Both the position numbers and the translations under genes were made by a program. Below are positions 1-26,530 of a stretch of DNA of 27,821 bases, one piece after another. The notes under the pieces were generated by a model. The model searched no databases. It saw only the letters and a program-made list of their open reading frames with translations, and was not told the origin of the DNA. Position 1 is the stretch's first letter; every line of letters starts with the position of its first letter. This DNA comes from a virus (lineage: Duplodnaviria > Caudoviricetes): IMG/VR virus record IMGVR_UViG_3300003481_000047, positions 1 through 27,821 of that record, one strand, 5' to 3'.

Positions 1-276
1 TCAGTGAGTTGGCTCCGTTTCCGCCATCTCATTGCAGCCATCAGAATTCGCTGGTGCCCGTTTGGTGCCCGTTTCGTTTTCTCGAAATGCGCAAACCTCA
101 GCAGCGATCCATGCCTGCACCTCGCTCATCAGCCAGAGCGATCTTTTGCCGACCTTGATCTGCCTGGGGAAGGTCTTCTCCCCGATGCGGATATAGATGT
201 AGGCCCGACTGACCCCGGTCAGCTCGCACACGCGATCAATCGACAGTAGCTCTTCCAGTTTTTCAGCCGCGCTCAC
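1..276 (-). CDS. alpA: AlpA-family DNA-binding protein / probable excisionase (recombination directionality factor), 91 aa
   Basis: LLSIDRVCELTGVSRAYIY...FPRQIKVGKRSLWLMSEVQAWI is a typical AlpA pattern. GTG start at 276 has an AAGGAG Shine-Dalgarno (SD) and overlaps the RT stop by 14 bp. The longer ORF-track start (528) is rejected. Confidence 0.85.
   Translation of the reverse strand: MSAAEKLEELLSIDRVCELTGVSRAYIYIRIGEKTFPRQIKVGKRSLWLMSEVQAWIAAEVCAFRENETGTKRAPANSDGCNEMAETEPTH
52..73. repeat. Tandem 11-bp direct repeat TGGTGCCCGTT x2, candidate integrase arm-type site
   Basis: Exact repeat at 52-62 and 63-73, at the end of the excisionase gene. The function is inferred from position only. 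Confidence 0.4.
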
Positions 277-1624
277 GGCAGGCTCCTTGTGAAATGGTGA
301 TGCGCCGACCTTCGGCGCGAAGCGAGTAGCGGCGCGGGCGAGTGGCCGCCGGCAGCCAGGGGAATCGACGGATGAAACCGGCGCGCAGGCGGTGTGCATT
401 GGCATGCCGGAAATGGCCTTCATACGAGGCCCAGATCGAGCGCACGGCGCGGAAGTCATCGGGCGTTCCAGTGATCCGGCCGGCGTCGCTGTGTGCGCTC
501 TCCCAGGCCGCCGGCGCGGCGCGGGCATGCGAGACGACGCGGCGGCGCACGGTGGTGTGCGTTGGCCGCACCACGTAGCCGAGGAAGTCGATACCGGCAG
601 CCAGCGGCTGAGGGTCGGCGTCCTCCTTCAGCGACAGGCGCAGCTCGTCGGCCAGGAACTGGACGATGCGGGCCTTCCACTCCAGCAGCTGTTCGCGGCT
701 GTGGTGCACCAGCACAAAGTCGTCCACATAGCGCAGGTAGCGCAGCGCGCCCAGCGTGTGCTTGATGAACTGATCGAGCCGGTCCAGGTAGACATTGGCG
801 AAGAACTGCGACGACAGGTTTCCGATGGGGATGCCGCAGCCGGCCGGGGCGTTCTCCAGCCGCTTGTGCGGCGGCACCAGCGCCCGGTCGGTCGCCGTGG
901 CGACGTGGCGCACCCCGATCTCCAGCGGCGAGTACCGGAGCAGGGCATGCGTGGCCTTGCGCGCGATCCACGGCAACCGGCGACGCTCCATCCGCGCTTT
1001 GAGCATCCGGTACAGCGTGGGCCGGTGTATGCGGTTGAAGAAATTGGCGATGTCGAGCTGCAGGTAGTAGCCGCCGCCCTGGCCGCTATGGACCTGCCGG
1101 ACGAACGCCTGCAGCCGCCGCACCGCGGCGTGCGATCCCTTGCCGCGCCGGTTGGCGAACGAATCGGCGATGAATGTCCGCTCGTAGATGGCTTCCAGCT
1201 TCGGAATTAGCCAGTGATGTACAACCCGGTCTCCGAAATCGGGAGCGTGGATCTCCCTGGCCTTTGGCCGGGTGGCCACGAAACAGGTGGTGGGCCGGGG
1301 CGACCAGGCGCCGGCGTTGATCTGCTCCTGCAGATCCAGCAGCCGGTCGCCCCAGCGGGTGTCGAAGTCGAGTTGATTGGCGCTCGGCACCTTCTGCCGG
1401 CGCGCTGCCTTCCATGCAGCATGGAGGTCGCGCAGCGTGACCTGCTGCGCTTCCCCTGCACCCTGAAACTCACGCGCGGGACCGCGCACGGCGCGCACGC
1501 GGTTGTTGTTGTCGCGGTTGTTGATGTTGGAATTGCCATTGTCGAAGTTGACGATCCAGGCGTTGTCCCCGCGATCTTGCAACCCATCCGCGCAGGCCAG
1601 TATCGGATAGCACGGACTCGTCAT
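263..1624 (-). CDS. brt: DGR reverse transcriptase, 453 aa, with the TR translated in its N-terminus
   Basis: Motifs KAREIHAPDFGDRVVHH, YYLQLDIANFFNRI, GIPIGNLSSQFFANVYL (DGR-type SQ motif), RYVDDF and GIDFLGY. ATG at 1624 has a GGAGGT SD and an ATGA overlap with the avd stop. Confidence 0.95.
   Translation of the reverse strand: MTSPCYPILACADGLQDRGDNAWIVNFDNGNSNINNRDNNNRVRAVRGPAREFQGAGEAQQVTLRDLHAAWKAARRQKVPSANQLDFDTRWGDRLLDLQEQINAGAWSPRPTTCFVATRPKAREIHAPDFGDRVVHHWLIPKLEAIYERTFIADSFANRRGKGSHAAVRRLQAFVRQVHSGQGGGYYLQLDIANFFNRIHRPTLYRMLKARMERRRLPWIARKATHALLRYSPLEIGVRHVATATDRALVPPHKRLENAPAGCGIPIGNLSSQFFANVYLDRLDQFIKHTLGALRYLRYVDDFVLVHHSREQLLEWKARIVQFLADELRLSLKEDADPQPLAAGIDFLGYVVRPTHTTVRRRVVSHARAAPAAWESAHSDAGRITGTPDDFRAVRSIWASYEGHFRHANAHRLRAGFIRRFPWLPAATRPRRYSLRAEGRRITISQGACRERG
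1468..1568 (-). repeat. DGR template repeat (TR) with IMH*-like 3' end
   Basis: Sense strand: GAC AAC GCC TGG ATC GTC AAC TTC GAC AAT GGC AAT TCC AAC ATC AAC AAC CGC GAC AAC AAC AAC CGC GTG CGC GCC GTG CGC GGT CCC GCG CGT GAG T. It is AAC-rich and aligns without gaps to both VRs. Confidence 0.96.
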
Positions 1625-2070
1625 CGGTAGACCTCCCAGCTGGAGGTGCCGCGGGTACTCAGTTTCTCGGCACGCTGCGCACGGGCTTGGCGACCCTGCG
1701 CATTCTGGCCGGTGTTGGGGTGCGGACTGCTCTGCTGGCGATACCAGCCGCCCGCTTGCTTGCCAAGCTCGCGGGCGATCCGGGCCAGCATCTCGAACTG
1801 CGCCAGGCTCGCAAAGGCGCGAAGCTGGCTGCACAGCTGCATCCTGATCTTCAACGCGTCTACTTCCCACATGACGCGCTCGACCAGGACGAGCTGCTGC
1901 TTTCTGTCCCGCCACGCCCGATGGACCAGCACAGTGATGCCCATCGCCTGCTGTCGCAGATCCGCGCCGGCGGTGTAGCGGTGTCGGCGAGGGAAGCCGG
2001 CGACCGCCCGCTCTATTTCGAGCAGCAGGCGTTCGGCGGTCTTGGCGATGGGTGGCAGCTGGAAGGTCAT
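1621..2070 (-). CDS. avd: DGR accessory variability determinant (Avd-like four-helix-bundle protein), 149 aa
   Basis: FPRRHRYTAGADLR...ELGKQAGGWYR pattern, and its position between target and TR/RT matches the canonical DGR layout. Confidence 0.9.
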   Translation of the reverse strand: MTFQLPPIAKTAERLLLEIERAVAGFPRRHRYTAGADLRQQAMGITVLVHRAWRDRKQQLVLVERVMWEVDALKIRMQLCSQLRAFASLAQFEMLARIARELGKQAGGWYRQQSSPHPNTGQNAQGRQARAQRAEKLSTRGTSSWEVYR

Positions 2071-2101
2071 CGGCTTCGGTCAGGTCAGGCCAAGATGCAA
2101 A

Positions 2102-2530
2102 TCACTGACGCGCGGGACCGCGCACGGCGCGCACGCGGAGGCCGTAGCCGCGGCCGTAGAAGTTGGAACTGCCATTGACGAAGTGGACGAACCAGGCGTA
2201 GTCGGAGTAGCCGGTGTCATCGTCCTTCTCCTCGCTGGCGTCATCGGTCGCGGTCCAGTACCAATCCGACTGGCAGGTCGGGAAAGCCGCGGTGTCGATG
2301 GCAGGGCTGCAGCGCGAGCGGTCGGCCAGAAGGAACAGTTCCTCGACCTCCGGCAGGCGCCAGTCCGTGAAGCCGCCGAACGCCTCCGCGTTGAGCTTGG
2401 CGACGGCGGTCAGCGCGTCGGCATGGGTCATACGGCCACCGGCTACGTCGTCCTGCGTCCAGTGCAGATCGCGGGCCGGCTCGTAGACGATGCCGTCGGC
2501 ATGCTGGGTGAAACGGGATTGCTCGGTCAT
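2102..2530 (-). CDS. DGR target protein 1, DUF1566/Lcl (C-type lectin fold) protein, 142 aa
   Basis: LHWTQ...FGGFTDWRLPEVEELFLL...SPAIDTAAFP...WYWTAT...AWFVHF..G...VRAVRG. Start at ATG 2530 with a GGAGG SD. The C-terminus is encoded by VR1. Confidence 0.92.
   Translation of the reverse strand: MTEQSRFTQHADGIVYEPARDLHWTQDDVAGGRMTHADALTAVAKLNAEAFGGFTDWRLPEVEELFLLADRSRCSPAIDTAAFPTCQSDWYWTATDDASEEKDDDTGYSDYAWFVHFVNGSSNFYGRGYGLRVRAVRGPARQ
2104..2203 (-). repeat. DGR variable repeat VR1
   Basis: 2108-2203 aligns to TR 1472-1567 over 96 bp with 15 mismatches, all at TR adenines (7 A>T, 6 A>G, 2 A>C). Confidence 0.96.
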
Positions 2531-2565
2531 GATGCCCTCCAGGGCGGTGGTAGATGGAGTAGGGG

Positions 2566-2766
2566 TCACGCCATCGATGGCGTGCATTTGGCGGCCATGG
2601 CTTCGTATCGCTCAGCCTCGGCCAGATAGAACCGCACGCGTTCTTCGCGGACGGTCGGAGGAAAGTTGTAGGCAACGCGCGCTGCATCGGCTGCGACACG
2701 GTTGATCTCGGCCAGGCGCCGAGCGCGATAGCCGAAGATGTCCAGCTGCTCAGGCGCGCTGCGCAT
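2566..2766 (-). CDS. Hypothetical phage protein, 66 aa
   Basis: MRSAPEQLDIFG..., overlapping the upstream gene and tightly packed in the operon. Confidence 0.6.
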   Translation of the reverse strand: MRSAPEQLDIFGYRARRLAEINRVAADAARVAYNFPPTVREERVRFYLAEAERYEAMAAKCTPSMA

Positions 2767-2968
2767 TGCCGCGGCCCTTCGGGCTATCGGGGAGGGCGAC
2801 AAGGCGCTGCAGCAGCGCCGCGTGCTGCGGCCGGGTGAGATCGAGGGTGCTTTCGCACCCGACCGCCCTGACGTGCGCCCGATACGTTTCCTCGTCCAAG
2901 CCCTTCTGCCCGTGAGCGAGCCGGCGCAGTGCCTTCACCATGGCCGGACTGATGTTGAAGTCAGTCAT
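2750..2968 (-). CDS. Small protein resembling the N-terminal part of Mu GemA/gp16 (DUF1018-like), 72 aa
   Basis: GLDEETYRAHVRAVGCESTLDLT resembles the GemA 'glDdetYRa.L....S.kdLt' pattern, recalled from memory. Confidence 0.5.
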   Translation of the reverse strand: MTDFNISPAMVKALRRLAHGQKGLDEETYRAHVRAVGCESTLDLTRPQHAALLQRLVALPDSPKGRGNAQRA

Positions 2969-3377
2969 CGCCGGCACCTCGCGGCCCATTCGCTTCGAGC
3001 GCGGCGCGGATGACCTGGCGCCAGCGGCTCGCCGCGGAGAGGCTCATCGGCCTGAACTTGCGGATCTCCTCCGCGCTCGGCGCCCGGTCGCGGAATCGCT
3101 GGGCCAGCTGCACCGCAATCAGCATTGTCGGCACCCGGATCTCACCGCGCTTCGCATTCGGGCGCGCACCGACAGCCTGGCAAAGCTGAGCACCCTTCCA
3201 GCCGTAGCGGAGCCGGGCACGGATAGCGGCGTCCGTCACCCCGGCAACCACGGCGATCTGTGGTACAGAAAGCCGGCCGTAGCGCCCACAGTTGATCAGG
3301 ACCGGCGGCCGCCCGGTGCGCTTTCGCACCGGCTGCGCACCTATGGTCGGCGCGAGCGGTTGCAGGTTTTGGGTCAT
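2961..3377 (-). CDS. Putative HTH DNA-binding protein, 138 aa
   Basis: LSVPQIAVVAGVTDAAIRARLRYGW is HTH-like. ATGA overlap with the methyltransferase stop. Confidence 0.6.
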   Translation of the reverse strand: MTQNLQPLAPTIGAQPVRKRTGRPPVLINCGRYGRLSVPQIAVVAGVTDAAIRARLRYGWKGAQLCQAVGARPNAKRGEIRVPTMLIAVQLAQRFRDRAPSAEEIRKFRPMSLSAASRWRQVIRAALEANGPRGAGDD

Positions 3378-4792
3378 GCTGCGGCCCTCTGCAGCCAGGT
3401 ATGGGCGATCTGGATGCGCCGGCCTATCCAGTGGATCACGGGGACCGCGAAGCTGTTGCCGAGCATCTTGTAGCGCGGGCCGTCGGCCATCGGCTTGCCC
3501 TTGGCGTTCGGCACCAGCGTCCAGTCGTCGATCGCGCCCTGCAGGCGCTCACATTCGCGTGGCGTAAGCCGGCGAACCTGCGTCGGTGTGAGCAATGCTG
3601 GTGCCGGGCTGTTCGCATCCAGGCATGTCGTGCGTTCCCTGAACAGCTTTCCCGCGTTGTTGCTCGCCGTGTTGTGTAGCTTGGTCGTGTATGCGACGGC
3701 GGCATGTCCACCGCCGTGTGCCGCCCGTAGCGTTCCGGGGACCTCACCGATCGACAGGGAAGTGTCGCCGCCCGCCTTGCAGTCGAATGCGATAGCCGGC
3801 GGATGAGCGCCAGCGCAAAGCGGATGGCATGGATCGCCCAGCCTGGGGCTGCTGCCATTGGTCACCGATGTGATTTGCGTCGTGTCGAAGGGCAGCACCG
3901 GCACCAGTGGCGTGCCGCGACCGGTGCCGTCCTCGCTGGCGTCGAAGCCATCGGCGCGGAGAGTGTGGGCGACTTCGGGCAGCAGAAGGCCAGCGTATGC
4001 GTCTTGTTGGGTGGCGCTACCTGCCGCCTTGGGGTTCCTGACCAGGGTGCCAGAGACCTCTGGAATCAACTGGCCACGCTCTCCGTCCTCCGCGCCACGC
4101 TCGCCAGCGCTGCGCGTAAGGGTGCCGGCAACTCCTTCCCCCGCTTCTCGGCGCGGCGCAGAATCCCCACGCAGGCTGTCGGGCTCAAGTAGTACCGGGG
4201 GTCTATCGGCCCAGTTTCCAGTATCGAGGACAGCGAACACGCGGCGGCGCCGCTGCGCCACTCCGAACCACTGCGCGTCAAGCACGCTCCATTCGACGAG
4301 CCCGTTGTCGCCCAACGCCACGCCCTCATTCCCCCAGCCGTCCGGCGGGACATCGAGTTCGCATCCTGCGAGCGCACCAACCACGACAGCAAAGTCTCGT
4401 CCCTGGTTGCTGCTGAAGGCGCCGGGGACGTTCTCCCACACGAGCCAGCGAGCGCCGCAAAGAGTCCTTGCTGCATTGAAGATCCTCAGTTGTTCGTGAA
4501 AGAGCCCAGAGCGTGCGCCGGCCAAGCCAACGCGCTTGCCGGCCACGGACAGGTCTTGGCATGGGCTGCCGCCGATCACGACGTCAATGTGTCCGAGCGT
4601 CGCGATCTTCTCGGCGGTGATGTCGGTGACGCTGCCCAGGTTCGGGACATGCGGCAGCCGGTGCGCCAGCAGTGCGCAGGCCGCCGGTTCGATCTCGGCG
4701 ACGGCGACGCACTCCCAGCCCAGCGGCGCCCAGGCCAGATGCGCAGCCTCCATACCGGAGAACAGGGACAGGTAGCGGATCGGCTCACGCAT
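3374..4792 (-). CDS. Phage C5 cytosine DNA methyltransferase (orphan), 472 aa
   Basis: Motif I SLFSG, IV GGSPCQ, VI WENVPG, VIII QRRRRVF, IX RRLTPRECERLQG and X KMLGNS. Confidence 0.95.
   Translation of the reverse strand: MREPIRYLSLFSGMEAAHLAWAPLGWECVAVAEIEPAACALLAHRLPHVPNLGSVTDITAEKIATLGHIDVVIGGSPCQDLSVAGKRVGLAGARSGLFHEQLRIFNAARTLCGARWLVWENVPGAFSSNQGRDFAVVVGALAGCELDVPPDGWGNEGVALGDNGLVEWSVLDAQWFGVAQRRRRVFAVLDTGNWADRPPVLLEPDSLRGDSAPRREAGEGVAGTLTRSAGERGAEDGERGQLIPEVSGTLVRNPKAAGSATQQDAYAGLLLPEVAHTLRADGFDASEDGTGRGTPLVPVLPFDTTQITSVTNGSSPRLGDPCHPLCAGAHPPAIAFDCKAGGDTSLSIGEVPGTLRAAHGGGHAAVAYTTKLHNTASNNAGKLFRERTTCLDANSPAPALLTPTQVRRLTPRECERLQGAIDDWTLVPNAKGKPMADGPRYKMLGNSFAVPVIHWIGRRIQIAHTWLQRAAA
4066..4476 (-). 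CDS. Alternative-frame ORF nested inside the methyltransferase, similar to the M.EcoHK31I beta-type polypeptide, 136 aa
   Basis: CSLSSILETGPIDPRYYLSPTACVGILRRAEKRGKELPAPLRAAL reads as a real conserved protein segment. It lies in a second frame across motifs VI-VIII. Confidence 0.6.
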   Translation of the reverse strand: MQQGLFAALAGSCGRTSPAPSAATRDETLLSWLVRSQDANSMSRRTAGGMRAWRWATTGSSNGACLTRSGSEWRSGAAACSLSSILETGPIDPRYYLSPTACVGILRRAEKRGKELPAPLRAALASVARRTESVAS

Positions 4793-5042
4793 CGCTCGCC
4801 TCCTGCGGGCTGTCCGCTTCCTCTCCGCAGTCCGCGTCGCACCATGGCTCGCCGCATAACGGGCAGCCGATCTCCTCTACCAATTCCGGCGCGCAGTTGT
4901 GGCAGGCATGTTCGCCGCCATACCACCCACCGCAACCAGCCCAGCAAAAGCCTTGGCCACAGGTCTTGCAGATTCCTGCATCGCTCAGGTCCAGCGGCTC
5001 GTCGCACACGGCGCACAGTCCGATTGGCATATCACCGGCCAT
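4785..5042 (-). CDS. Small Cys-rich putative zinc-binding protein, 85 aa
   Basis: 12 Cys in CxxC/CxxxC pairs. It overlaps both neighbouring genes. Confidence 0.7.
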   Translation of the reverse strand: MAGDMPIGLCAVCDEPLDLSDAGICKTCGQGFCWAGCGGWYGGEHACHNCAPELVEEIGCPLCGEPWCDADCGEEADSPQEASDA

Positions 5043-5376
5043 CCTTCATCCCCTGCGGGCGGGCGGCGATGATCTCCAGCCGCTGCACGGTGTAAGGCTG
5101 CCTGTTCCGGTTCCCTCGGTACGTCAGTTCGGCCGCGTAGGCGGCCGGCTCAGAACTGTATAGGCCGCCGACCTGATCTCCGCCCGAGTTAATCAGCCTC
5201 CAAGCCTCGCTGACGACTTCGCGCTCAGAAGCTGCGCGCAGCGCGTCGGCGATGACACCCACTGCCGCTTCGCTCATCCGGCATACACCGGGCACCAGCG
5301 CCAGCCTGTCGCTGTAACCACGGGTCCTGTACTCCGCCGCCAGCAGTTCGCGGGCCTGCTGCATCAGGTCAGCCAT
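5032..5376 (-). CDS. Hypothetical phage protein, 114 aa
   Basis: MADLMQQARELLAAEY..., packed in the operon. Confidence 0.65.
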   Translation of the reverse strand: MADLMQQARELLAAEYRTRGYSDRLALVPGVCRMSEAAVGVIADALRAASEREVVSEAWRLINSGGDQVGGLYSSEPAAYAAELTYRGNRNRQPYTVQRLEIIAARPQGMKDGR

Positions 5377-5599
5377 GGCGCACCACCCACTTTCGGTTGT
5401 GAAGCTCTATGGCTCCCCTCTTGCGCAGTGATTGCAGCCGGCGGTCCACGATTCTGTAGCAGTCCGCTCGCTCATCGCCGAACGCGGCGACGCACGCCTC
5501 CTTAACCTTTCGATTCGGGAAGATCGCGCCAAACGTGTCGGCCCCATTTTCAATGCAGCTGACAATTGCTGCGTCGATGCTGCTGTAATCAATTGCCAT
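5369..5599 (-). CDS. Small putative winged-helix protein, 76 aa
   Basis: YRIVDRRLQSLRKRGAIELHNRKW is a helix-wing pattern. Start taken at the second ATG (5599). Confidence 0.6.
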   Translation of the reverse strand: MAIDYSSIDAAIVSCIENGADTFGAIFPNRKVKEACVAAFGDERADCYRIVDRRLQSLRKRGAIELHNRKWVVRHG

Positions 5600-5780
5600 C
5601 GGGCACCCCCGCGCCGTGGCTGTTGGCCTGCAAGTTGTCAACCTGCGCTTGCTGCTGTCCGCGCCCCATTTGGCTCAGCAGCGGCATACGCGCTGACGTG
5701 TCGTGTACGCAGCCCCAGTAGTGCTGGAAGGGCTGCCCAAGCGGACTTTCGCGTCCGCATTCGCTGCATTTTTGGCTCAC
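5589..5780 (-). CDS. Hypothetical protein with CxxC...HxxxC motif, 63 aa
   Basis: GTG start overlaps the upstream TGA (GTGA). Sequence begins MSQKCSECGRESPLGQPFQHYWGC. Confidence 0.5.
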   Translation of the reverse strand: MSQKCSECGRESPLGQPFQHYWGCVHDTSARMPLLSQMGRGQQQAQVDNLQANSHGAGVPDGN

Positions 5781-6715
5781 GGCTGCACCTCCGCATCGCC
5801 GGCCTGCGCCTTCATCGCGGCGCGAATGGCGCCCCGGATGGTGTCGTGGACGTTCCCGCGCCTCGGGGCCATCGTCTCGTGCACGACCACGCAGTGGCCG
5901 GAAATACCATCGATGGGATCGACCGACCGGTAGGCGGTGAAGCCGTTGGCGTCCATCCAGTTCAGCAGCGCCGCGTCGTCCGCCTCGCTGCCGCCCTCGG
6001 GGCTGCTCAACCCTTCGGCGCTTCCGAACTGTTCGTTCAGCGCGCCCTTGGGGCTGTCCAACCCTTCGGCGCTTCCGAACTGTTCGTTCAGCGTGGCGCC
6101 CTTGGGGCTGGCGTCGATCAGGGCCGATTCCACGTCGCGCAGGCGAACCCAAGCGCCGCGCTCAGACTTGCGCATCTCAGAGACATAAATGTCGTGTGCC
6201 AGCACGTAACGCGGAACTTTGGACAGGTCAATCCCCGGCGCTGCGGGGGTGCTGGCGTGCGCCTTGTGAAACTCGGCCGTGGTCGCGCCTGCCCATTCGG
6301 CGTAGCGCTTCGCCTCGGCGATACGCCAATCGGGCAGCGGTTCGTCCGCGCCCATGCCGAGCGCAAAGCGCAGCGGCTGGCCCACCGGCGAGCTGGCGCC
6401 CTGGTGGTGCCACAGCACCCATGCGATGGCGGCGCGGGCCGTGTCGGTGAACTCCGGCGACATTTCGGCCGGCGCTGCGGTGACGGGGGCGGCGTAGAGT
6501 GGGACGAAGCAATCGTCATCCGGCATCGCGTATGCATAGCTGCTGGCGGCTGCATCGGCATTGCCGGCCCGATGTTCGGCAAAGCGATCAAGAGCCTTGC
6601 GCGTCATCCACGCCACCGCCTCATGCGCTGAGGCGGCCGGATGCACTGGGCACGGCCAGCGCAGCGACCCGTCGCCGCTGGGGCAGGTGCACTTGTTGTT
6701 CGGCTGCATGGTCAT
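5777..6715 (-). CDS. Mosaic early phage protein with an internal tandem duplication, 312 aa
   Basis: Starts MTMQPNNKCTCPSGDGSLRWPCPVHP after an AAGGAAG SD with an ATGA overlap. Contains the modular segments AVAW..PLYAAP and LIDASPKG. Confidence 0.7.
   Translation of the reverse strand: MTMQPNNKCTCPSGDGSLRWPCPVHPAASAHEAVAWMTRKALDRFAEHRAGNADAAASSYAYAMPDDDCFVPLYAAPVTAAPAEMSPEFTDTARAAIAWVLWHHQGASSPVGQPLRFALGMGADEPLPDWRIAEAKRYAEWAGATTAEFHKAHASTPAAPGIDLSKVPRYVLAHDIYVSEMRKSERGAWVRLRDVESALIDASPKGATLNEQFGSAEGLDSPKGALNEQFGSAEGLSSPEGGSEADDAALLNWMDANGFTAYRSVDPIDGISGHCVVVHETMAPRRGNVHDTIRGAIRAAMKAQAGDAEVQP
5999..6110. repeat. About 51-bp tandem duplication encoding (SPKGA[T]LNEQFGSAEGL) x2
   Basis: CAACCCTTCGGCGCTTCCGAACTGTTCGTTCAGCG occurs at 6008 and 6059, each flanked by GGGGCTG. 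Confidence 0.9.
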
Positions 6716-7005
6716 TGGCTGGCTTCCTTCTTGCCTGGGCGATGGGTGTACCGGGCGCGGCCCGGCAGATGGGGGATGAGGAGCTTCTGGGCGGTCGGCG
6801 CGCTGTAGCGCGCAACGCGGCATGGTTTGCCGCGGCGGTTGCGGACCACGATCTCGGTTGAGTGGATGACGTAGCCGTCGCGCCGGAGGTCGTAGACGCG
6901 CGCGCTGGCGCGGGCGATGCCAAGCTCGACCAGGATCTCCATGGCGGTCATCGGCTTCTTGGAGATGGCGTCCAGGAGCAGGGCGGATTGAGCGTCGTCC
7001 GACAT
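6712..7005 (-). CDS. Winged helix-turn-helix protein, 97 aa
   Basis: MTAMEILVELGIARASARVYDLRRDGYVI. ATG at 7005 has a GAGGT SD. Confidence 0.75.
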   Translation of the reverse strand: MSDDAQSALLLDAISKKPMTAMEILVELGIARASARVYDLRRDGYVIHSTEIVVRNRRGKPCRVARYSAPTAQKLLIPHLPGRARYTHRPGKKEASQ

Positions 7006-7012
7006 GGCCACC

Positions 7013-7276
7013 TCAGAACGACAGCTGGAGCTGCGGCATGGCCGGGAAAACCCTGCGCGGCGCCCTGGGCGCGCGGCGCGCGGCCGGCTGCTGGTGCATC
7101 TGCTCCCATTCCGCCAGGGCGCGTTCGTACTCGGGATGCCGCGCGGTGTGGCTGCAGGCGCACTCGATGCCATGGCCGCCGCCTGCGGAGGCGCGGCGCA
7201 GGTCATGGATGTGGCGGGCGGCGTGGCCCTTGCTGCAGGGTGTGATCGGTTCGGGGTGGCTGATCATGCGTTGCAT
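7013..7276 (-). CDS. Hypothetical His/Cys-containing protein, weakly Lar-like, 87 aa
   Basis: PCSKGH...IECAC...ALAEW. AGGAG SD. Confidence 0.6.
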   Translation of the reverse strand: MQRMISHPEPITPCSKGHAARHIHDLRRASAGGGHGIECACSHTARHPEYERALAEWEQMHQQPAARRAPRAPRRVFPAMPQLQLSF

Positions 7277-7295
7277 GGGCTTCTCCTGGGCCGCG

Positions 7296-7820
7296 TCAGG
7301 GCGCGGCGCTGACGAACGCCAGGTCGTAGATGACGCAATGCACCCGGGCCGCCGACAGGGTTTCGGCGTTCACCACGGAGGACAGGGGGGCAACCGCAGT
7401 TGCCCGGGTGCATGCGTCGGGGGAAACGGAATAGGAGCCGCTGGTCACGGCGTCGACGGCATCGAGCGCGTCCTGCCAGCGGCGAGGGGAGAACTCCTGG
7501 GTGAGTGCCGCGCCGACGCCGGCGGCGCAGTTCGGCACGCGGTCGGCGGCGCGGAAGCCGTTCAACGCGGTGAGGGCGATGGCGGCGCGCAGGCCCCAGT
7601 CGTCGTGATCGGCCAGGTCGTAGACGGCGAGCGCGGCGCAGATCCGCGGGCTCGTCACGATCAGGTCTGCCGGGATGGCGACTTCGCCATCCACGGCGAG
7701 CACCGAGGACGAGACGGGCTCAGGGTGGACGGGAGCGGCGCAGCCGACCATGACGAGCATCAGGGAGGCGAGGAGAGCGCACCTCAGCGCTGCGATTGCA
7801 TTGGATTGCCGCGCGCCCAT
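7296..7820 (-). CDS. Putative lipoprotein with a degenerate SleB/cell-wall-hydrolase-2-like fold, 174 aa
   Basis: Hydrophobic signal with lipobox MVG-C. ICAALAVY...G..AIA...LN....P...QEFS...W..A...AT echoes the SleB family, but the catalytic Glu is absent. Confidence 0.55.
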   Translation of the reverse strand: MGARQSNAIAALRCALLASLMLVMVGCAAPVHPEPVSSSVLAVDGEVAIPADLIVTSPRICAALAVYDLADHDDWGLRAAIALTALNGFRAADRVPNCAAGVGAALTQEFSPRRWQDALDAVDAVTSGSYSVSPDACTRATAVAPLSSVVNAETLSAARVHCVIYDLAFVSAAP

Positions 7821-7823
7821 GGT

Positions 7824-8264
7824 TCAGCGCTCCAAAGAGGCCGAGGACTGACGCGCGGGACCGCGCACGGCGCGCACGCGGTTGCCGCCGCCGCGGTAGG
7901 CGATGTAGGAATAGCCATAGCCGAAGTCGACGACCCAGGCGTAGTCCTTGTCGCCGGCGTAGACCGTGGAAGTCCAGAACCAGGTGTTCGGGGTGTTCGG
8001 GAACGCGTCGGTGTCGATGGCCGGCGAGTAGCGGGTGTCGTCCACCAGCGTCAGCAGCTCGGCGCGGGTCGGCAGGCGCCAGTCGTCGTGACCGCCCAGG
8101 CGCAGCTCTGCGCAGGCCTTGACGGCATCGGCGTGCTTCATCGACTCGGCGAAGGGGCTGGCCTGCCACTCCAGCCCGGTGGTGGTGTCCAGGACGGTCT
8201 CGTGGACCGGCGGCGGGGTGGGGACGATCTTCTGGAAGCGGGGAAGCGCGGCGGTGCCGGACAT
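7824..8264 (-). CDS. DGR target protein 2, DUF1566/Lcl protein, 146 aa, first gene of the pL operon
   Basis: VLDTTTGLEWQ...LGGHDDWRLPTRAELLTLVD...SPAIDTDAFP...WFWTST...AWVVDF..G...VRAVRG. GGAGA SD. The C-terminal region is encoded by VR2. Confidence 0.93.
   Translation of the reverse strand: MSGTAALPRFQKIVPTPPPVHETVLDTTTGLEWQASPFAESMKHADAVKACAELRLGGHDDWRLPTRAELLTLVDDTRYSPAIDTDAFPNTPNTWFWTSTVYAGDKDYAWVVDFGYGYSYIAYRGGGNRVRAVRGPARQSSASLER
7847..7947 (-). repeat. DGR variable repeat VR2 (remote target)
   Basis: 7851-7946 aligns to TR 1472-1567 over 96 bp with 15 mismatches, all at TR adenines (9 A>G, 5 A>T, 1 A>C). Confidence 0.96.
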
Positions 8265-8318
8265 TTGCGGTCTCCGTGCCCCGGCCCGGGATGGGCTGGT
8301 CTTGGGGCGACGGATGCA

Positions 8319-8360
8319 AAGTTAGGACTAGCTAATTACCAAGTCAATAGGAGAGGCTAA
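8319..8360 (-). promoter_or_regulatory. pL-like promoter (TTGACT-17-TAACTT) overlapped by two 14-bp operators (8322-8335 and 8347-8360)
   Basis: -35 at 8347-8342 and -10 at 8324-8319. TTAGGACTAGCTAA is the exact reverse complement of the operator at 9319-9332. Confidence 0.85.
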
Positions 8361-8428
8361 GTTTTTCAGCGGAAGGCTGAATACTTAACTATTGATTCAG
8401 GGTATTTGAGCGTATCGGGCCAAATGAG

Positions 8429-8451
8429 AAGCCCCACCTGGGGTGGGGCTT
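8429..8451 (-). terminator. Hairpin/intrinsic terminator ending the cI operon
   Basis: Stem AAGCCCCACC / GGTGGGGCTT, downstream of the 8477-8809 gene. Confidence 0.65.
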
Positions 8452-8476
8452 GATGGGCATCACCACAAGCTGGTGG

Positions 8477-8809
8477 TCAACGCATGGAGCGCAGGAGGCC
8501 GGCATCCTCGAACGTAACCCCATCCGCAATGCACTCACGTGCTCGGTCGAGGTCTCGATGTAGCGCCAGCAGCTCGGCATCGGAAAGGTCCTCGATGGCC
8601 GCGCATCCGATGGTGGCCTGGTCCACCAATAGCTGGAAGCCAAACTGTCGGTATGCCTTGGTCAAACTGCGGATCATGCGGATGTGGCTCTGCCGCGTGA
8701 TCTCGTCCATTGGGCGAAGCGCCCCAACATCAGCCAGCGGCTTGTCAGCTGGCGGTGCGGCGCTGATCCGCTCCAGCAACTTTTCCAGCAGTGTGTCCGT
8801 TTTGCTCAT
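8477..8809 (-). CDS. Hypothetical protein co-transcribed with cI, 110 aa
   Basis: MSKTDTLLEKLLERIS..., GGGAG SD, overlaps the 3' end of cI. Confidence 0.7.
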   Translation of the reverse strand: MSKTDTLLEKLLERISAAPPADKPLADVGALRPMDEITRQSHIRMIRSLTKAYRQFGFQLLVDQATIGCAAIEDLSDAELLALHRDLDRARECIADGVTFEDAGLLRSMR

Positions 8810-9269
8810 CTCGCTCCCTGTGACTATCCCGCTTCGCCCGCCATTGAGCGAAGTCCACAAGGTTTCTTTGATCTATCGGCCTGTCGTCCTCGGAAACCCA
8901 CTCATAGACGTCCGCGAACAGGTCGGCTTCCGCCGTGAGTGAGAACTTCTTGCCGAGTGCAGCGAAGGCTCGCTCAAGGAAATCTTGGGTGGCGGAAAGG
9001 ATCGCCGGGTCAGGTCGCGCGGAGTGAGACTTAGTTGGGCCGGGTGCCTGGCGACGCTCCATGGGCCCTTGGCCGGTGGCGAGCCACTCATCCGAGACCA
9101 CCAAAGCCGCAGCTGCGCTAAGAAGGTTCTCGCCGCGGAGGAACTTCGACTTTCCGCTCAACCAGCCATGGACGCTTGGCTGGCTCACGCCGCACAGCCG
9201 CGCAAGTTCTGCTTGGGACATGCCCCGCTGAGACATAGCGAGGGAAAGGCGTTCGGCGAGAGTGCTCAT
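8745..9269 (-). CDS. cI: CI-like Xre/HTH_3 repressor with no recognisable S24 peptidase domain, 174 aa
   Basis: LAERL...MSQAELARLCGVSQPSVHGWLSG...WLATGQG. Transcribed divergently from cro. Confidence 0.88.
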   Translation of the reverse strand: MSTLAERLSLAMSQRGMSQAELARLCGVSQPSVHGWLSGKSKFLRGENLLSAAAALVVSDEWLATGQGPMERRQAPGPTKSHSARPDPAILSATQDFLERAFAALGKKFSLTAEADLFADVYEWVSEDDRPIDQRNLVDFAQWRAKRDSHRERDEQNGHTAGKVAGADQRRTAS

Positions 9270-9335
9270 TAGTTAAGCCTAATTAGGGTTGGCTTCGGAC
9301 TGGCTATTGACCACGGACTTAGCTAGTCCTAAGCT
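9269..9335. promoter_or_regulatory. oR region: three 14-bp operators at 25-bp spacing (9269-9282, 9294-9307, 9319-9332), pR (TTGACC-17-TAAGCT) and a probable leaderless pRM
   Basis: Sites TTAGTTAAGCCTAA, TTCGGACTGGCTAT and TTAGCTAGTCCTAA, consensus TTAG-N6-CTAA. pR -35 at 9307-9312 and -10 at 9330-9335. Confidence 0.85.
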
Positions 9336-9343
9336 TCGGCGCC

Positions 9344-9748
9344 ATGGACACCAAAACCCCCTCCCAGATCATCGATGCGCTCGGCGGCACTGCGACGGTC
9401 GCCAGGCTCTGCAGAGTCAAGGCTCCGTCCGTTAGCGACTGGCGGAAGAACGGAATCCCGGACGCGCGCCGGCAGTACCTGGAGCTTCTCCGGCCCGACG
9501 TATTCCAGGAGGAGGGAATCACGAAGCGCGCGCTGATGCAGCGCCTGGCACTGACCAACGACACGAGTCTTGCCGTGCTGCTGCAGTTGCCGCGCGAGAC
9601 CGTGGAGGAATGGCCGGACGACGCGACTGTCCCGGCTTCGCCGCGGTTGCAGGCGCTGCTCGCCGATGTTCCCGCCGCCGCCGCCGCCGCGTCGCAGGAA
9701 CCCGAAGACCCCGACGCCGCCCGCATCGTCCCGGTGGAGACCGCCTGA
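9344..9748 (+). CDS. cro: Cro-like regulator with a C-terminal extension, 134 aa
   Basis: IIDALGGTATVARLCRVKAPSVSDWRKNGIP..R is a Cro/YdaS-type HTH. Confidence 0.85.
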   Translation: MDTKTPSQIIDALGGTATVARLCRVKAPSVSDWRKNGIPDARRQYLELLRPDVFQEEGITKRALMQRLALTNDTSLAVLLQLPRETVEEWPDDATVPASPRLQALLADVPAAAAAASQEPEDPDAARIVPVETA

Positions 9749-9828
9749 GATGGACGTTCTCGCCGATAAGTTCCGTGTCCTGCCAGATGAAAGGCGGGAC
9801 TTCCATGTCCTCGCCGACAGGTTCCGGG

Positions 9829-10032
9829 TTACGCCGCCAGCAGGTTTTTCAGTGCAGCGAGCGTCGCGTCCCGTGTTTCCTGATCCGACTTCTGAAGGCT
9901 CGGCATGAGAAGCGCCTCCACCTTTTCTGCGAACTGCGAGTCGCGCTCCATTGCGTCCTTTGCCAGCTGCGCGACGACTGCCTGCATTGCAAACGTCGTG
10001 ACCAACAAGTGGTTTCTCAGCTCGGTCTCCAT
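9829..10032 (-). CDS. Small antisense-oriented hypothetical protein, 67 aa
   Basis: METELRNHLL... with a strong AAGGAGG SD. Predicted helical. Confidence 0.5.
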   Translation of the reverse strand: METELRNHLLVTTFAMQAVVAQLAKDAMERDSQFAEKVEALLMPSLQKSDQETRDATLAALKNLLAA

Positions 10033-14787: not shown

Positions 14788-14827
14788 TAAACAAAAGTGT
14801 TTACCGTTACACAAAAGTGTGTAAAAT
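14788..14827 (+). promoter_or_regulatory. hicAB promoter with two palindromic operators
   Basis: TAAACAAAAGTGTTTA (14788-14803) and TACACAAAAGTGTGTA (14808-14823). -10 TAAAAT at 14822-14827. Confidence 0.7.
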
Positions 14828-14856
14828 GGCCTCCATCGAAACAACAACGGAGGCGG

Positions 14857-15042
14857 ATGAAAACAAGCGAGTTCAGGCGGTGGTTGCAGTCCCAAGGCGT
14901 GGTGATGAAGGAAGGAGCCAATCACACCAAGCTGTACTACCAAGGGAAGCAATCGACACTGCCCCGACACGCTGCGGAGATGAGGGAAGGCACACGGAAG
15001 GCCATCATCAAGCAGCTAGGATTGGAGGAACCGCCCCGGTAA
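14857..15042 (+). CDS. hicA: HicA-family mRNA interferase toxin, 61 aa
   Basis: MKTSEFRRWLQSQG...GANHTKL...STLPRH..EMREGT.KAIIKQLGL. GGAGG SD. Confidence 0.92.
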   Translation: MKTSEFRRWLQSQGVVMKEGANHTKLYYQGKQSTLPRHAAEMREGTRKAIIKQLGLEEPPR

Positions 15043-15083
15043 GGGGCGGCGCCTTCGGCTCGCAAGTGACCATCTGATTACAC

Positions 15084-15506
15084 ATGCTGTATCCAGCAAA
15101 ACTGGCGCCGGAGGACGGCGGCTACGTGGTGACGTTCCGGGACATCCCGGAGGCGATCACGCAGGGCGACACGAGGGAGGAAGCCATTGCGATGGCGGCC
15201 GATGCCCTCGCAACGGCTATGGAGTTCTACTTCGAGGACCGCCGGCAGGTTCCGCCGCCGTCGGAGCTTCGCCGGGGTGAGGTGGGTATCTCTCTGCCGG
15301 CTGGCTTCACCGCGAAGGCGTTGCTGCTCAACGAGATGCTGGCCCAAGGCGTGACGCCTTCGGAGCTGGCCCGCAGGATGGGAACGTCGCCGCAGGTGGT
15401 GAACCGGATTGTGGATCTCGGGCATGCGACGAAGATCGACACCATCGCCGACGCGCTGCGCGCGCTGGGCGCCCGGCTGGACCTGACTGTTAGCCGCGCG
15501 GCATAG
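15084..15506 (+). CDS. hicB: HicB-family antitoxin with a C-terminal HTH, 140 aa
   Basis: YPAKL..EDGGYVVTFRDIPEAITQGDTREEAIAMAADAL, plus C-terminal SELARRMG. Confidence 0.93.
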   Translation: MLYPAKLAPEDGGYVVTFRDIPEAITQGDTREEAIAMAADALATAMEFYFEDRRQVPPPSELRRGEVGISLPAGFTAKALLLNEMLAQGVTPSELARRMGTSPQVVNRIVDLGHATKIDTIADALRALGARLDLTVSRAA

Positions 15507-17327: not shown

Positions 17328-17708
17328 CTACTCCTTCTTGAGGTAGTCCTTGAGCTGATAGATGTAATAGGACAGGTCGGTCGAGGAGTTGTAGATGCCG
17401 GAGATCCATTTGCTGGGCGGGGCATCCACTCGCATATGGAAGTTGGCAGAGGCCGACCTGACCGCCGGCCCGAAGAAGGCGCTCTCCAGGTGAGTTAGCG
17501 GCCTGCGGCGCCCGTCCACTGTCTCGTTCTTGGCGAGCGCCTTGAGCTCGGCCTTCACTGCAGTAAGCCGTTCTCGGAGTTCCGGCATGTCGTCCCGGTT
17601 GAGGGTGCGCCATCCGTCCGATATCCGCATTAAGTCCTCAAGTTCATTGTGCAAGCGGCTCAACGTCGAGAGCACCAGCTCGGCATCCTGGAGATTTCGT
17701 GTGTCCAT
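17328..17708 (-). CDS. Antisense moron of unknown function, 126 aa
   Basis: Clean ORF on the opposite strand, AT-richer than its flanks by eye, convergent with Rz. Confidence 0.7.
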   Translation of the reverse strand: MDTRNLQDAELVLSTLSRLHNELEDLMRISDGWRTLNRDDMPELRERLTAVKAELKALAKNETVDGRRRPLTHLESAFFGPAVRSASANFHMRVDAPPSKWISGIYNSSTDLSYYIYQLKDYLKKE

Positions 17709-18439: not shown

Positions 18440-18828
18440 TGAGCGGACGGCCGATGCGCCAGCGAGGCGGCACCGCGTTCGCCCACCTTTACAAGACGGC
18501 CCGCTGGCAGCGAATTCGCAAGGCGCAGCTTGCACGGGAGCCCCTGTGCAGCAGATGTGCCGCTAGAGGCGCGGTCACTGCGGCGACGGTTTGCAACCAC
18601 ACGAACGGGCACCCCGCTGGCGAGACCGAGGAGCAGTTCTGGGGCGGCCCGTTCGACAGCCAGTGCGTGACCTGCCACAGCGGCGAGACCGCCCGGATCG
18701 AGCGTGGTGCCACGATGGTGAAGGGGTGCGATGAGGACGGATGGCCGCTGCCAGCACCGACCGCGGAGCCCTCTCGGATCGAACCATACCCCGGGGGTAT
18801 CAAAAGTACGGTTAGGTTCCGGCCCTAG
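18439..18828 (+). CDS. HNH endonuclease, HK97 gp74-like packaging cofactor
   Basis: Y.TARW..IR..QL.REPLCSRC...ATVCNH...CVTCH, plus GCDEDGWP. Directly upstream of terS. Confidence 0.85.
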   Translation: MSGRPMRQRGGTAFAHLYKTARWQRIRKAQLAREPLCSRCAARGAVTAATVCNHTNGHPAGETEEQFWGGPFDSQCVTCHSGETARIERGATMVKGCDEDGWPLPAPTAEPSRIEPYPGGIKSTVRFRP

Positions 18829-18893
18829 ACCGACTGTCCCCCTTTCTTCACGCATCCACAGTTGGAAAGACGACCCCAGCAGAGGGGCGATTC

Positions 18894-19271
18894 ATGGCGA
18901 ATCCAAGGACTCCCGCGGCGAAGGCGAAGGTCTCCGGCGCGGCGGCAAAGAACCCGAAACGACACAAGGACCGCAAGACGCCGAAGAAGGCGCGGCCCAT
19001 CGGCCCCCCGTACAAGGGGATGACGAAGGCGCAGATCGCGGTGTGGCGCGAGCAGGTAGAGAACATGCCCTGGCTGCACGCAGGCCACCGCCTGCTGCTG
19101 CGCCAGGTCTGCATCTTGGGTGCTCGCATGGAAACCGATCCCGAAATGGGGGTATCGGCAATGCAGGCGCTGGGCTCGCTTCTGTCGAAGCTGGGCGCCA
19201 CGCCGGTGGACGAGACGAAAGTGAATCATGGCGAAGGCGAGGACGACGACCCGGACGAAAAGTTCTTCTGA
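18894..19271 (+). CDS. terS: Terminase small subunit
   Basis: Position before terL. MANPRTP...LSKLGATP.D.TKV (P27-type ending). Confidence 0.8.
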   Translation: MANPRTPAAKAKVSGAAAKNPKRHKDRKTPKKARPIGPPYKGMTKAQIAVWREQVENMPWLHAGHRLLLRQVCILGARMETDPEMGVSAMQALGSLLSKLGATPVDETKVNHGEGEDDDPDEKFF

Positions 19272-21108: not shown

Positions 21109-21116
21109 GGAAACCC

Positions 21117-22376
21117 ATGTCCAGGTTCAACAAGGACTCCCTCGGCGCGCTGGAGCGAATCTGGAGCGGCGAAGGGGAGAGCAAGCCCGTGCTCGCCGAG
21201 TCTCGCCAGTTCACCGGCATGGACGATCCGGCGTTGCTGGAGTTCATCCGCGCCGGGCAGGCCGGCGCACACGACAGCTTCCAGCTGCGCAACATGGCCG
21301 TCCTGCGCTGCGTGTCTCTGATCTGCGGCACGGTCGGCATGCTGCCCATCAACCTGATCGAAGCGGGCCCGAAGAAGCGGGTCGCGTCGGAGCATCCGGT
21401 CCACCGGCTGTTGAAGCGGAAGCCGAACCCGTGGCAGACGCCGTTGGAGTTCAAGCGGCAGATGGAGTTGGCGAAGCAGCGACACGGGAACGCCTACGCG
21501 CGCGCGGTGTGGTCGGCCGGACGGCCCATCCATCTGATCCCGCTGGACAGTACTGCGGTGCGTTCGGAGCTGGGCGACGACTGGAAGATGGTCTATCGCT
21601 ACAACTCGAAGAAGCGCGGCGAGGTGGTCCTGAAACAGGAGGAGGTATTCCACCTGCGTGACCTGTCCATCGACGGCGTGGTGGGGCTGTCCCGCATGAA
21701 GCTGGCCGACCGGGCGATTCGCCTGGCGCTGGACGCGGAGAAGGCGGCGAGCCGAATCTTCGAGACCGGCAACATGGCCGGCGGCGCCATTGAGGTGGCC
21801 GGCACGTTGAGCGAGACGGCCTATAACCGCATGCGCCAGTCGCTCGACACCGAGTACGCCGGAGCGGCCGCCGCGCAGCGGTGGATGCTGCTGGAAGAGA
21901 ACGCCAAGGCCAACAAGTTCGGCAGCACCGCCCAGGAGGCCCAGCACGTCGAGAACCGGAACGCCCAGGTGGGCGAGGTGGCGCGCCTGTTCGGCGTACC
22001 GCGGCCGCTGTTGTTCATGGACGACACGAGTTGGGGCAGTGGCATCGAGCAGCTGGGCATCTTCTTCCTGCAGTACACGATGCTCGAGCACTTCACGAAT
22101 TGGGAGCAGGCCATCGAGCGCACGCTCCTGCAGGAGCACGAGCTGGAGCAGTACCAGCCGAAGTTCAACGTTCGGGCGCTGATGCGAGGCACGTTGACGG
22201 ACCAGGCCGATTTCTTCGCCAAGGCGCTCGGCGCCGGTGGCACTGCGCCGTGGCACACCCAGAACGAGGTCCGAGACCTGCTGGACTACCCCGAATCCGA
22301 GCAGCCCGGCACCAACGAGCTGCGCAACCCGATGACCCAGAAAGGAAAACCCGATGAGCCTCCGGAATCTGCCTGA
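21117..22376 (+). CDS. HK97-family portal protein
   Basis: AVLRCVSLI...LP, PNPWQT, GNAYA, EVFHLR and VARLFGVP. AAGGA SD before ATG 21117. Confidence 0.93.
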   Translation: MSRFNKDSLGALERIWSGEGESKPVLAESRQFTGMDDPALLEFIRAGQAGAHDSFQLRNMAVLRCVSLICGTVGMLPINLIEAGPKKRVASEHPVHRLLKRKPNPWQTPLEFKRQMELAKQRHGNAYARAVWSAGRPIHLIPLDSTAVRSELGDDWKMVYRYNSKKRGEVVLKQEEVFHLRDLSIDGVVGLSRMKLADRAIRLALDAEKAASRIFETGNMAGGAIEVAGTLSETAYNRMRQSLDTEYAGAAAAQRWMLLEENAKANKFGSTAQEAQHVENRNAQVGEVARLFGVPRPLLFMDDTSWGSGIEQLGIFFLQYTMLEHFTNWEQAIERTLLQEHELEQYQPKFNVRALMRGTLTDQADFFAKALGAGGTAPWHTQNEVRDLLDYPESEQPGTNELRNPMTQKGKPDEPPESA

Positions 22377-23193: not shown

Positions 23194-23205
23194 GCGAGGC
23201 AATCA

Positions 23206-24453: not shown

Positions 24454-24476
24454 CCGGGTCGAGGATCGCTAACCAA

Positions 24477-24502
24477 GGGCGGGCGGCTTCGGCCGCCCGC
24501 TC
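24477..24502 (+). terminator. Strong cUUCGg-capped hairpin after the capsid gene (mRNA stabiliser or terminator)
   Basis: GGGCGGGCGGC-TTCG-GCCGCCCGCTC, with no U-tract. Confidence 0.6.
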
Positions 24503-24516
24503 TGCATGGAGAAGTC

Positions 24517-24783: not shown

Positions 24784-24787
24784 ACCT

Positions 24788-26454: not shown

Positions 26455-26481
26455 CCGATCCACCCAGCACTAACCCCAACC

Positions 26482-26508
26482 ACCCGGCCTCGCGCCGGGT
26501 TTTTCATT
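26482..26508 (+). terminator. Intrinsic terminator-like hairpin before the tail tube gene
   Basis: ACCCGGC-CTCGC-GCCGGGT followed by TTTTC. Confidence 0.6.
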
Positions 26509-26530
26509 TACCCAAGCGAGGTAACAACGA

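Follow-up and report, generated by a model that had tools for sequence, protein, structure and literature searches.

Diversity-generating retroelements (DGRs), which work through an error-prone reverse transcriptase (RT), are in phages generally taken as host-range switches. In DGRs characterized elsewhere, RT and Avd copy the RNA of a template repeat (TR), making errors at A, and a variable repeat (VR) is replaced by the resulting cDNA. The cassette of Bordetella phage BPP-1 (mtd-avd-TR-brt) varies a 381-aa tail receptor-binding protein encoded near the tail genes. The window analyzed here, the whole 27,821-nt stretch of a Caudoviricetes virus, resembles BPP-1 in its target-avd-TR-RT order, its A-specific mismatches, and a C-terminal VR in a CLec fold. 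Unlike in BPP-1, its targets are early genes of 142-146 aa, not tail receptor-binding proteins of the structural module, and its TR lies inside the RT ORF, whereas 144 nt separate the TR from brt in BPP-1.

A DGR with the same two-short-target layout is in print for Burkholderia phage Magia (MT701587) (PMC7883833). Like the window, Magia is temperate and carries its DGR in a leftward operon between repressor and integrase, with short lectin-fold targets, one leading the leftward genes and others next to avd-RT; three VRs were found there. The early-operon cassette with short targets is shared, but the RTs fall in separate clades in a quick tree (41% identity). The Rfam RT-15 RNA is present at 3/3 Magia-type loci, compared with 0/3 loci of the window's clade, and is absent from the window. 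The Magia TR is also out of frame with the RT, unlike that of the window. An independent origin from the Magia type is unsupported, since the AU test retains one common origin (p 0.149). The Magia authors proposed, without a test, that the DGR serves host range or lets the phage adapt as conditions change (PMC7883833). Pseudomonas phages Haboob and Cruim01 and Shewanella phage vB_Sb_QDWS have DGRs of a similar kind, each with a pair of small targets. The available part of PMC11846083 leaves the Haboob DGR unmentioned, and those of PMC11661182 and PMC6328139 add no function for such targets.

A non-structural, conflict-related role for a phage DGR target was proposed by Benler et al. (2021), in the accessible portion of that paper (PMC8008677). 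As described there, the second Quimbyvirus target, like those of the window, lies at a distance from the structural genes and on the other strand; methyltransferases are encoded nearby, and a role in phage-host conflict was proposed for it. Quimbyvirus differs in its Bacteroides host, its frameshifted RT, and an additional varied target beside the tail fibre genes (PMC8008677, same portion), whereas no complete relative examined in the window's clade has a tail target. According to the accessible text of Wu et al. (2018), roughly one in two DUF1566-class targets is a short protein with a single domain (PMC5758913). Multiple and non-adjacent targets are common among category 'd'/CLec2 DUF1566 targets, as in Legionella LdtA and the eight-target DGR of Stenotrophomonas sp. 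SKA14, and the accessible text mostly interprets these targets as chromosomal surface proteins (PMC5758913, PMC6602519). The novelty implied in the preliminary description of this locus was thus too high, given the Magia layout (PMC7883833), the proposal of Benler et al. (PMC8008677), and short DUF1566 targets (PMC5758913), the latter two as seen in the available text. A clade-wide, tail-independent pattern was not found in the literature searched.

The DGR reverse transcriptase (263..1624, minus strand, 453 aa) has a YVDD motif, matches RVT_1 (E 7e-15) and phrog_1423 (E 4e-93), and places with DGR RTs in a quick tree. Its ATG, preceded by a GGAGG site, overlaps the stop codon of avd (ATGA). 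The avd accessory gene (1621..2070, minus strand, 149 aa) matches phrog_3206, 'Avd protein of DGR' (E 2e-16), although its Pfam bAvd score is under the cut-off. The TR (1472..1567, minus strand) aligns without gaps to VR1 (2108..2203) and VR2 (7851..7946), both also on the minus strand. Each VR differs from the TR at 15/96 positions, and all 30 mismatches fall at TR adenines (chance about 2.5e-11 per VR for a TR with 25 A in 96 nt). The preliminary description, which had called RT and avd intact and reported this gapless, adenine-confined pattern, is borne out on both points. The 25 adenines make 15 codons variable and about 6e14 peptides possible. The invariant, GC-rich last 30 nt of VR1, after which the sequence departs from the TR immediately beyond 2108, are a putative IMH; folds downstream of the VRs, looked at as a candidate IMH hairpin, are weak (-2.8 and -7.5 kcal/mol). 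Scanning both strands of the window with A as a wildcard gave no third VR, and positions 1-10,000 gave no Rfam match.

The RT belongs to a clade from temperate phages of Xanthomonadales (Stenotrophomonas, Xanthomonas, Lysobacter, Dyella, and Rhodanobacter) that comprises 36 distinct loci and 74 targets, which have a median of 150 aa and a single Lcl_C domain. A point absent from the preliminary description is that the TR is in frame within the RT ORF at 36/36 of these loci, which makes for a very compact DGR. In the window, the translated TR forms RT residues 20-51, within a segment (residues 1-58) predicted to be disordered; the dN/dS of this RT leader is too noisy to use (0-1.6). Each locus has one to three targets that are varied separately.

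Recent activity is indicated by a strain in runs X15 and X17, which are likely a single campaign and were counted once. This strain has one difference from the window over 200-1501 and none over 1474-2133, compared with 15 differences in VR1, 14 of them at TR adenines, and 11 listed differences in VR2, all 11 at TR adenines. Because nearly all differences from so close a strain sit at TR adenines, these comparisons indicate that the VRs of both targets were recently rewritten, in line with the diversification first claimed for the locus. The VRs differ in every close relative; three identical records and sample runs possibly from the source gave no VR change, so any present-day activity in this lineage is putative. 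Outside the VRs, scaffold dN/dS is below 1 in 16/16 pairs (0.11-0.39 in the seven closest), as expected of scaffolds under purifying selection. This selection argues against a hitch-hiking or near-neutral cassette whose targets do little and whose VR change is purely mutational. Such a cassette would fit the patchy distribution among siblings, an amino-acid use in the VRs like that of unrelated DGRs, and the eroded TR of one locus (L029). It would not fit the extra targets, a second or a third, gained time and again at distant positions, or the retention of the cassette across a clade whose RT identity falls to 55%, and it is very improbable.

Target 1 (2102..2530, minus strand, 142 aa) has a GGAGG site at its start; a start at the upstream ATG (2587), which has no RBS and is absent from locus L004, would lengthen the protein to 161 aa. 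Target 2 (7824..8264, minus strand) has 146 aa. Each is a stand-alone protein with one Lcl_C/DUF1566 domain over the cut-off, as first described. The targets are predicted to adopt a C-type-lectin fold with the VR placed C-terminally; the model (pLDDT 90) resembles 8q4e and C-type lectins. By sequence and structure, the best match is the C-terminal domain of Legionella Lcl, PDB 8q4e (E 2e-5; Foldseek E 3.7e-5, TM 0.58), with 24% identity. Lcl is a collagen-like bacterial protein and extracellular adhesin, which weighs against an intracellular role of the targets, and it is not known as a DGR target. Judged by the Lcl_C profile, the VR overlaps DUF1566 as in category 'd'/CLec2 targets, and the nearest folds are Lcl and the CLec domains of phage fibres. 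A search of the ESM Atlas returned Lcl_C clusters only. The single match of target 2 by tblastn among 50,697 GenBank phages was a weak one, to Xylella phage Xfas53, where no TR/VR was found within the 6.5 kb examined.

Related chromosomal DGR targets that were sampled carry signal peptides, unlike those of the window's phage clade. By a crude Kyte-Doolittle test, a hydrophobic N-terminus is found in 3/86 clade targets compared with 42/79 targets from related non-clade DGRs, which agrees with the lack of an export signal noted at first. The targets are likely located in the cytoplasm. Cys content was considered as a clue to a reducing or oxidizing site and is uninformative: VRs of clade and outgroup are equally depleted (3 observed vs 63 expected, and 0 vs 70), and the canonical disulfide is retained in neither. 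Tyr/Gly/Ser-rich VR composition, identical in the outgroup, was likewise dropped as a specific clue. Prediction of a complex between targets 1 and 2 gave no answer (score 0.00) and weighs neither way.

Of 15 loci that share the next gene at 89% identity or higher, ten have neither target 2 nor an RT match, and Lcl_C was found in 0/5 of the DGR-less siblings tested. Two cassette-less siblings (G031 and G035) have neck and tail genes 89-90% identical to those of the window. At the empty site of DGR-less siblings, the AlpA/excisionase-like gene (1..288, minus strand, by profile matches) directly follows the ORF at 2566-2802. The first eight codons of target 2 (MSGTAALP; 8241..8264, minus strand) are common to the first leftward gene of siblings without target 2, and in 9/10 of these the match to the window ends inside or at the end of these codons. 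In sibling L150, the gene for a 174-aa ORF with a lipoprotein-like N-terminus (7296..7820, minus strand, in the window) itself opens with the start of target 2. These alignments place the insertion of target 2 directly behind codon 8 of the gene that leads the leftward early operon, whose start it captured, and indicate that the targets and cassette are optional genes.

The preliminary description held that the targets are not tail fibres. The window contig stops short of the tail fibre genes, which had been overlooked, so a tail VR is not excludable from the window alone. Whole-record scans of ten near-complete relatives, each with its own TR, found no VR outside the early region, and tail genes are present in 10/10 of these, with at least four tail-tip families; on these relatives the claim holds. 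No VR was found in the tail region of G026, which is 93% identical to the window over 18,800-27,821. In 22/25 records, all Lcl_C matches are at most about 7.5 kb upstream of the RT and on its strand. These data bear on the possibility that the targets act as adhesins set free at lysis, or as dispensable additions to the virion, and so alter adsorption or mask receptors, which corresponds to the host-range reading of the Magia authors. Tail proteins are most viral DGR targets, according to the available part of PMC8144416, the nearest folds include those fibre domains, and an accessory fibre is compatible with gene absence in siblings. Nevertheless, the targets lack an attachment domain and sit in an early operon, the N-terminus of target 2 was borrowed from an unrelated early gene, and one target family is found alongside unrelated head and tail modules (a terminase search matched 1/5 records; the families differ). 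A virion or adhesin role is accordingly unlikely.

The operon itself would fit expression early in infection. The first head gene begins 10.6 kb from the targets on the opposite strand, matching the separation of more than 10 kb first reported. Target 2 is the first gene behind a leftward promoter-like site (TTGACT-17-TAACTT; 8319..8347, minus strand) that was read by eye and was missed by a consensus scanner, which found no leftward sigma-70 site. An operator-like repeat recurs in this site and in the rightward promoter-like site that precedes cro (9307..9335, plus strand), and a CI-like repressor gene (8745..9269, minus strand) lies between them. Of eight annotated clade loci, seven have repressor/Cro upstream, five have integrase downstream, and five have recombination genes nearby. 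The leftward early operon proposed at the outset is supported by this arrangement, and the targets are likely early-expressed. RNA runs X18-X20 contained small shares only, on contigs from relatives.

Taken together, a recently active DGR would rewrite the tips of two small, optional lectin-fold proteins that are likely made in the cytoplasm, during infection or upon induction, under a leftward promoter governed by the repressor. These would most likely serve as variable binders that block strain-specific host defence proteins; we give this account about an even chance. A single leftward transcript would bear targets, avd, TR, and RT, so that diversification and use of the targets could occur in the same lytic round, and variants neutralizing a local host obstacle would yield more progeny. 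The most conjectural step is that the ligand would be a defence protein, and counter-defence as the role of the targets is a best guess that could fall either way; the anti-defence, host-takeover, and competitor-inhibition roles suggested in the preliminary description are likewise conjectures. Counter-evidence is that the search for a ligand, a partner, or a conserved neighbour gave none: the 35 clustered loci have nothing in common beyond targets, avd, and RT, and neither targets nor neighbours matched PADLOC. Mtd binding relies on avidity, according to the accessible part of PMC2408619, which a lone 140-aa domain may not have.

The same anatomy would serve proteins that act inside the cell against competing phages or co-resident prophages, inhibiting them by binding their proteins at co-infection or induction. 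Rival phage proteins change fast, the type of ligand that favours diversification, and DGR-based antiviral defence has been proposed (PMC10053308, available text). Yet a repressor-controlled promoter, by analogy with lambdoid phages, would probably keep the targets silent in the lysogen, the state in which a prophage usually requires defence, and the targets have no fused effector domain, unlike the sensors in the available part of PMC10907252. Inhibition of competitors therefore carries a low probability. Binding of host housekeeping or regulatory proteins, for takeover or lysis-lysogeny tuning, could aid adaptation to related hosts with no link to defence, as the first position in the leftward operon and the spread of the clade over its five genera would allow. 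Conserved host proteins, however, need neither about 6e14 variants nor one to three separately varied copies, and would hardly call for a different VR in every close relative; this role is quite improbable.

If counter-defence is correct, a broader picture can be drawn tentatively, and it is somewhat doubtful as a whole. Proteobacterial temperate phages would have adopted a surface-adhesin DGR, lost the export signal, and set several targets behind the first early promoter as pre-emptive, antibody-like cytoplasmic binders. Selected against local host defences, these would later be fixed as anti-defence genes after DGR loss, amounting to adaptive counter-immunity. A widespread clade varying only small optional early proteins points to a second, intracellular use of targeted hypermutation, and the role of non-structural phage DGR targets, a question raised in print, becomes testable. 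Material for this exists: a type strain whose prophage has a 96%-identical RT, phage isolates arranged alike, and natural siblings of which some carry the cassette and others lack it. A related prophage with two targets (L039/L005) resides in Stenotrophomonas nitritireducens DSM 12575. Should the ligands prove to be defence proteins, VR alleles could serve as bait for defence systems and the 140-aa scaffold as a compact intracellular binder. In eight records of 90% completeness or more, a target-like gene persists intact and no RT match is found, which is expected if a fixed variant is useful. Such orphan-target records may also be trimmed proviruses; G026 stops where the cassette would begin.

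The diversity-generating retroelement (DGR) of the window is real and recently active. Its template repeat (TR, 1472-1567) aligns without gaps to the variable repeats of target 1 (VR1, 2108-2203) and target 2 (VR2, 7851-7946). Each VR has 15 mismatches to the TR, every one among its 25 adenines, a pattern with a chance probability of about 2.5e-11 per VR. The preliminary description had claimed one TR, two VRs with adenine-only mismatches, intact reverse transcriptase (RT) and avd genes, and single-domain targets of about 142-146 aa, all of which re-examination bears out. Target 1 (142 aa) and target 2 (146 aa) each consist of a single Lcl_C (DUF1566) domain, and no further VR was found across the window.

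Activity was read from contigs, which lose rare variants. A near-identical phage occurs in contigs of two sequencing runs, X15 and X17, likely from one campaign. It has 1 difference from the window over 200-1501 and none across avd and the greater part of the TR. Among the best-supported differences listed, its VR1 has 15, 14 of them at TR adenines, its VR2 has at least 11, those listed all being at TR adenines, and at least 4 others fall in non-VR parts of the target genes. Comparing VRs among relatives had been proposed earlier, and VR2 proved different in each close relative rather than identical throughout. Counting against current activity, the VRs of runs X1, X5, and X12 (possible source samples) and of records L001-L003 match those of the window. 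In another locus (L029:10061-10170, record G022), most adenines are gone from the TR itself; judged by eye, the changes relative to the sister TR in L027 are at ancestral adenines. The distal VR of this locus departs from that TR at only 3 remaining adenines, and the proximal VR is older than the erosion. The pattern looks like that of a TR replaced by a VR or by a cDNA copied from itself, in an element that was still active afterwards. Smaller TR changes occur in L205 and L225.

In an AlphaFold2 model (pLDDT 90), target 2 resembles C-type lectins, among them the C-terminal domain of Legionella Lcl. The Pfam match spans residues 22-134 of 146, so a second domain has no room in the protein. Most viral targets are assigned to tails by Roux et al. 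(PMC8144416). For the present targets, a tail role appears strongly contradicted by comparative evidence. In 22 of 25 records, the Lcl_C matches are upstream of the RT and at most ~7.5 kb from it. Ten near-complete records, all with tail genes (several families), were scanned whole, each with its own TR. No VR was found beyond the early region in any of them: in the nine records whose TR is intact, even the best matches there differ at 27 or more of 66-70 non-A positions, and the tenth, with its eroded TR, gave none either. The window, a complete record, stops short of tail fibre genes; the head and tail genes of record G026 match it at 93%, which makes G026 a proxy for the missing half, and its tail region contains no VR. 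The earlier claim that the targets are not tail fibres is thus upheld.

RT searches yielded 38 viral and 74 genomic loci, and the clade set comprises 47 loci with RTs at least 54% identical (window counted). In a quick tree, these RTs form one branch (SH-aLRT 100) among chromosomal proteobacterial DGRs. Many chromosomal DGRs outside the clade (L050-L112) have one target upstream of the RT and a second ~2 kb downstream, the latter often ~170 aa and signal-bearing. TR/VR pairs are present in 43 of the 47 clade loci; the other four are explained by one deletion, one circular join, one contig end, and one eroded TR. Removal of 7 duplicates left 36 loci with 74 targets (two in 24 loci, three in 7, one in 5), and the median target length is 150 aa with automatically chosen start codons. 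A crude hydrophobicity test flagged 3/86 clade targets versus 42/79 outside targets, which suggests that export signals were lost in the clade. Among eight loci annotated for neighbourhood (102 chosen proteins), an upstream repressor or Cro is present in seven, a downstream integrase in five, and nearby recombination genes in five; all tail genes seen lie on the opposite strand. No gene family was found to travel with the cassette besides its own parts. In a close relative (L007:8663-10930), ~25 kb is gone and the tail-tube region is fused to the RT interior.

The TR lies in the RT frame in 36/36 clade loci versus 6/43 outside loci. In 33 of the 36 clade loci, the avd stop and a start codon overlap as ATGA behind a purine-rich site, 66-96 nt before an anchor codon in the TR; in 31 of these 33, the stretch up to the RT core contains no second in-frame start preceded by a strong ribosome site. 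The frame is kept through several indels. Clade-wide, as in the window (1451-1624, minus strand), the TR is translated as the RT N-terminus with a conserved leader motif. Since this 58-residue leader is predicted to be disordered and its dN/dS is noisy, we read the layout as compaction with translational coupling rather than a new domain. DGRs beyond the clade can also have the TR close to the RT, usually in the +1 frame.

Sibling loci, here those with a neighbour gene of at least 89% identity, number 15; target 2 is present in 5 of them (one a copy of the window) and missing from 10. The 10 records without it, 3 of them at least 90% complete, have no RT match, and Lcl_C was found in none of the 5 tested. 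In L147 and L152, the gene preceding the cassette directly adjoins the excisionase, and neck/tail genes are shared with the window (89-90%). In 9 of these 10 siblings, the match to the window breaks off inside the opening 8 codons of target 2 or past them, and in those inspected the frame runs on as another gene, which indicates that the first leftward gene received target 2 as an insertion. Target 2 uses the ribosome site of that gene and probably also its promoter. A leftward promoter-like site (TTGACT-17-TAACTT), missed by a consensus scanner, has an operator-like repeat in common with the site ahead of cro. Intact target-like genes also occur in 8 records at least 90% complete with no RT match, of which some may be trimmed and two represent a more distant sub-family. 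Scaffold dN/dS is 0.02-0.68 (16 pairs), and the scaffolds are evidently under purifying selection. A 174-aa ORF of no known family (7296-7820, minus strand) with a lipoprotein-like signal is common among siblings and is a possible exclusion protein.

Mutagenic retrohoming is established for BPP-1. In its standard form, it would rewrite 15 codons at the lectin tip. Every part would be produced from the leftward early operon on infection or induction, and the target proteins would remain cytoplasmic. Alleles binding a local obstacle would be selected, and some would be retained once the cassette is lost. The targets are thus envisaged, with good though incomplete confidence, as optional, non-virion, early, cytoplasmic binders; the chances that their ligand is a host defence protein seem evenly balanced. 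A weak point of the binder reading is the dependence of Mtd on avidity (PMC2408619), an objection tempered by the monomeric state of other DGR targets (PMC6328139).

Both the early-operon, short-target layout and the idea of a conflict role are already in print, the former for Magia, which has the same layout as the DGR of the window (PMC7883833), and the latter for a non-structural Quimbyvirus target, as proposed by Benler et al. (PMC8008677). DGRs of a similar kind also occur in three other phage isolates, from Pseudomonas and Shewanella (L114, L115, and L116); each encodes two targets, annotated as hypothetical proteins, in a non-structural gene region. Together with Magia, they form an RT clade separate from that of the window; in a test of separate versus shared origin for the two groups of RTs, shared origin was not rejected. 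Wu et al. (PMC5758913) describe short targets made of DUF1566 alone, as well as prophages in which targets are non-adjacent. Roux et al. (PMC8144416) report that activity is lower in a mixed clade 3. A literature search of main texts, few of them subscription papers, found no study of the Xanthomonadales clade, no test of such targets, and no description of the in-frame TR-within-RT form.

The window covers the early half of a temperate phage of lambdoid type, with AlpA/excisionase, methyltransferase, CI, Cro, CII, and DnaB genes, lysis genes, and terminase, portal, capsid, and tail tube genes. Among named relatives, a prophage of Stenotrophomonas nitritireducens comes closest (RT 96%). A lone opposite-strand ORF past the lysis genes (17328-17708, minus strand) belongs to a function-unknown family (phrog_35260) and is moron-like. 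At 5992-6093, a 51-nt sequence occurs twice in tandem inside a mosaic early ORF, and a HicAB toxin-antitoxin pair (14797-15506, plus strand) lies between a Q-like gene and the holin.
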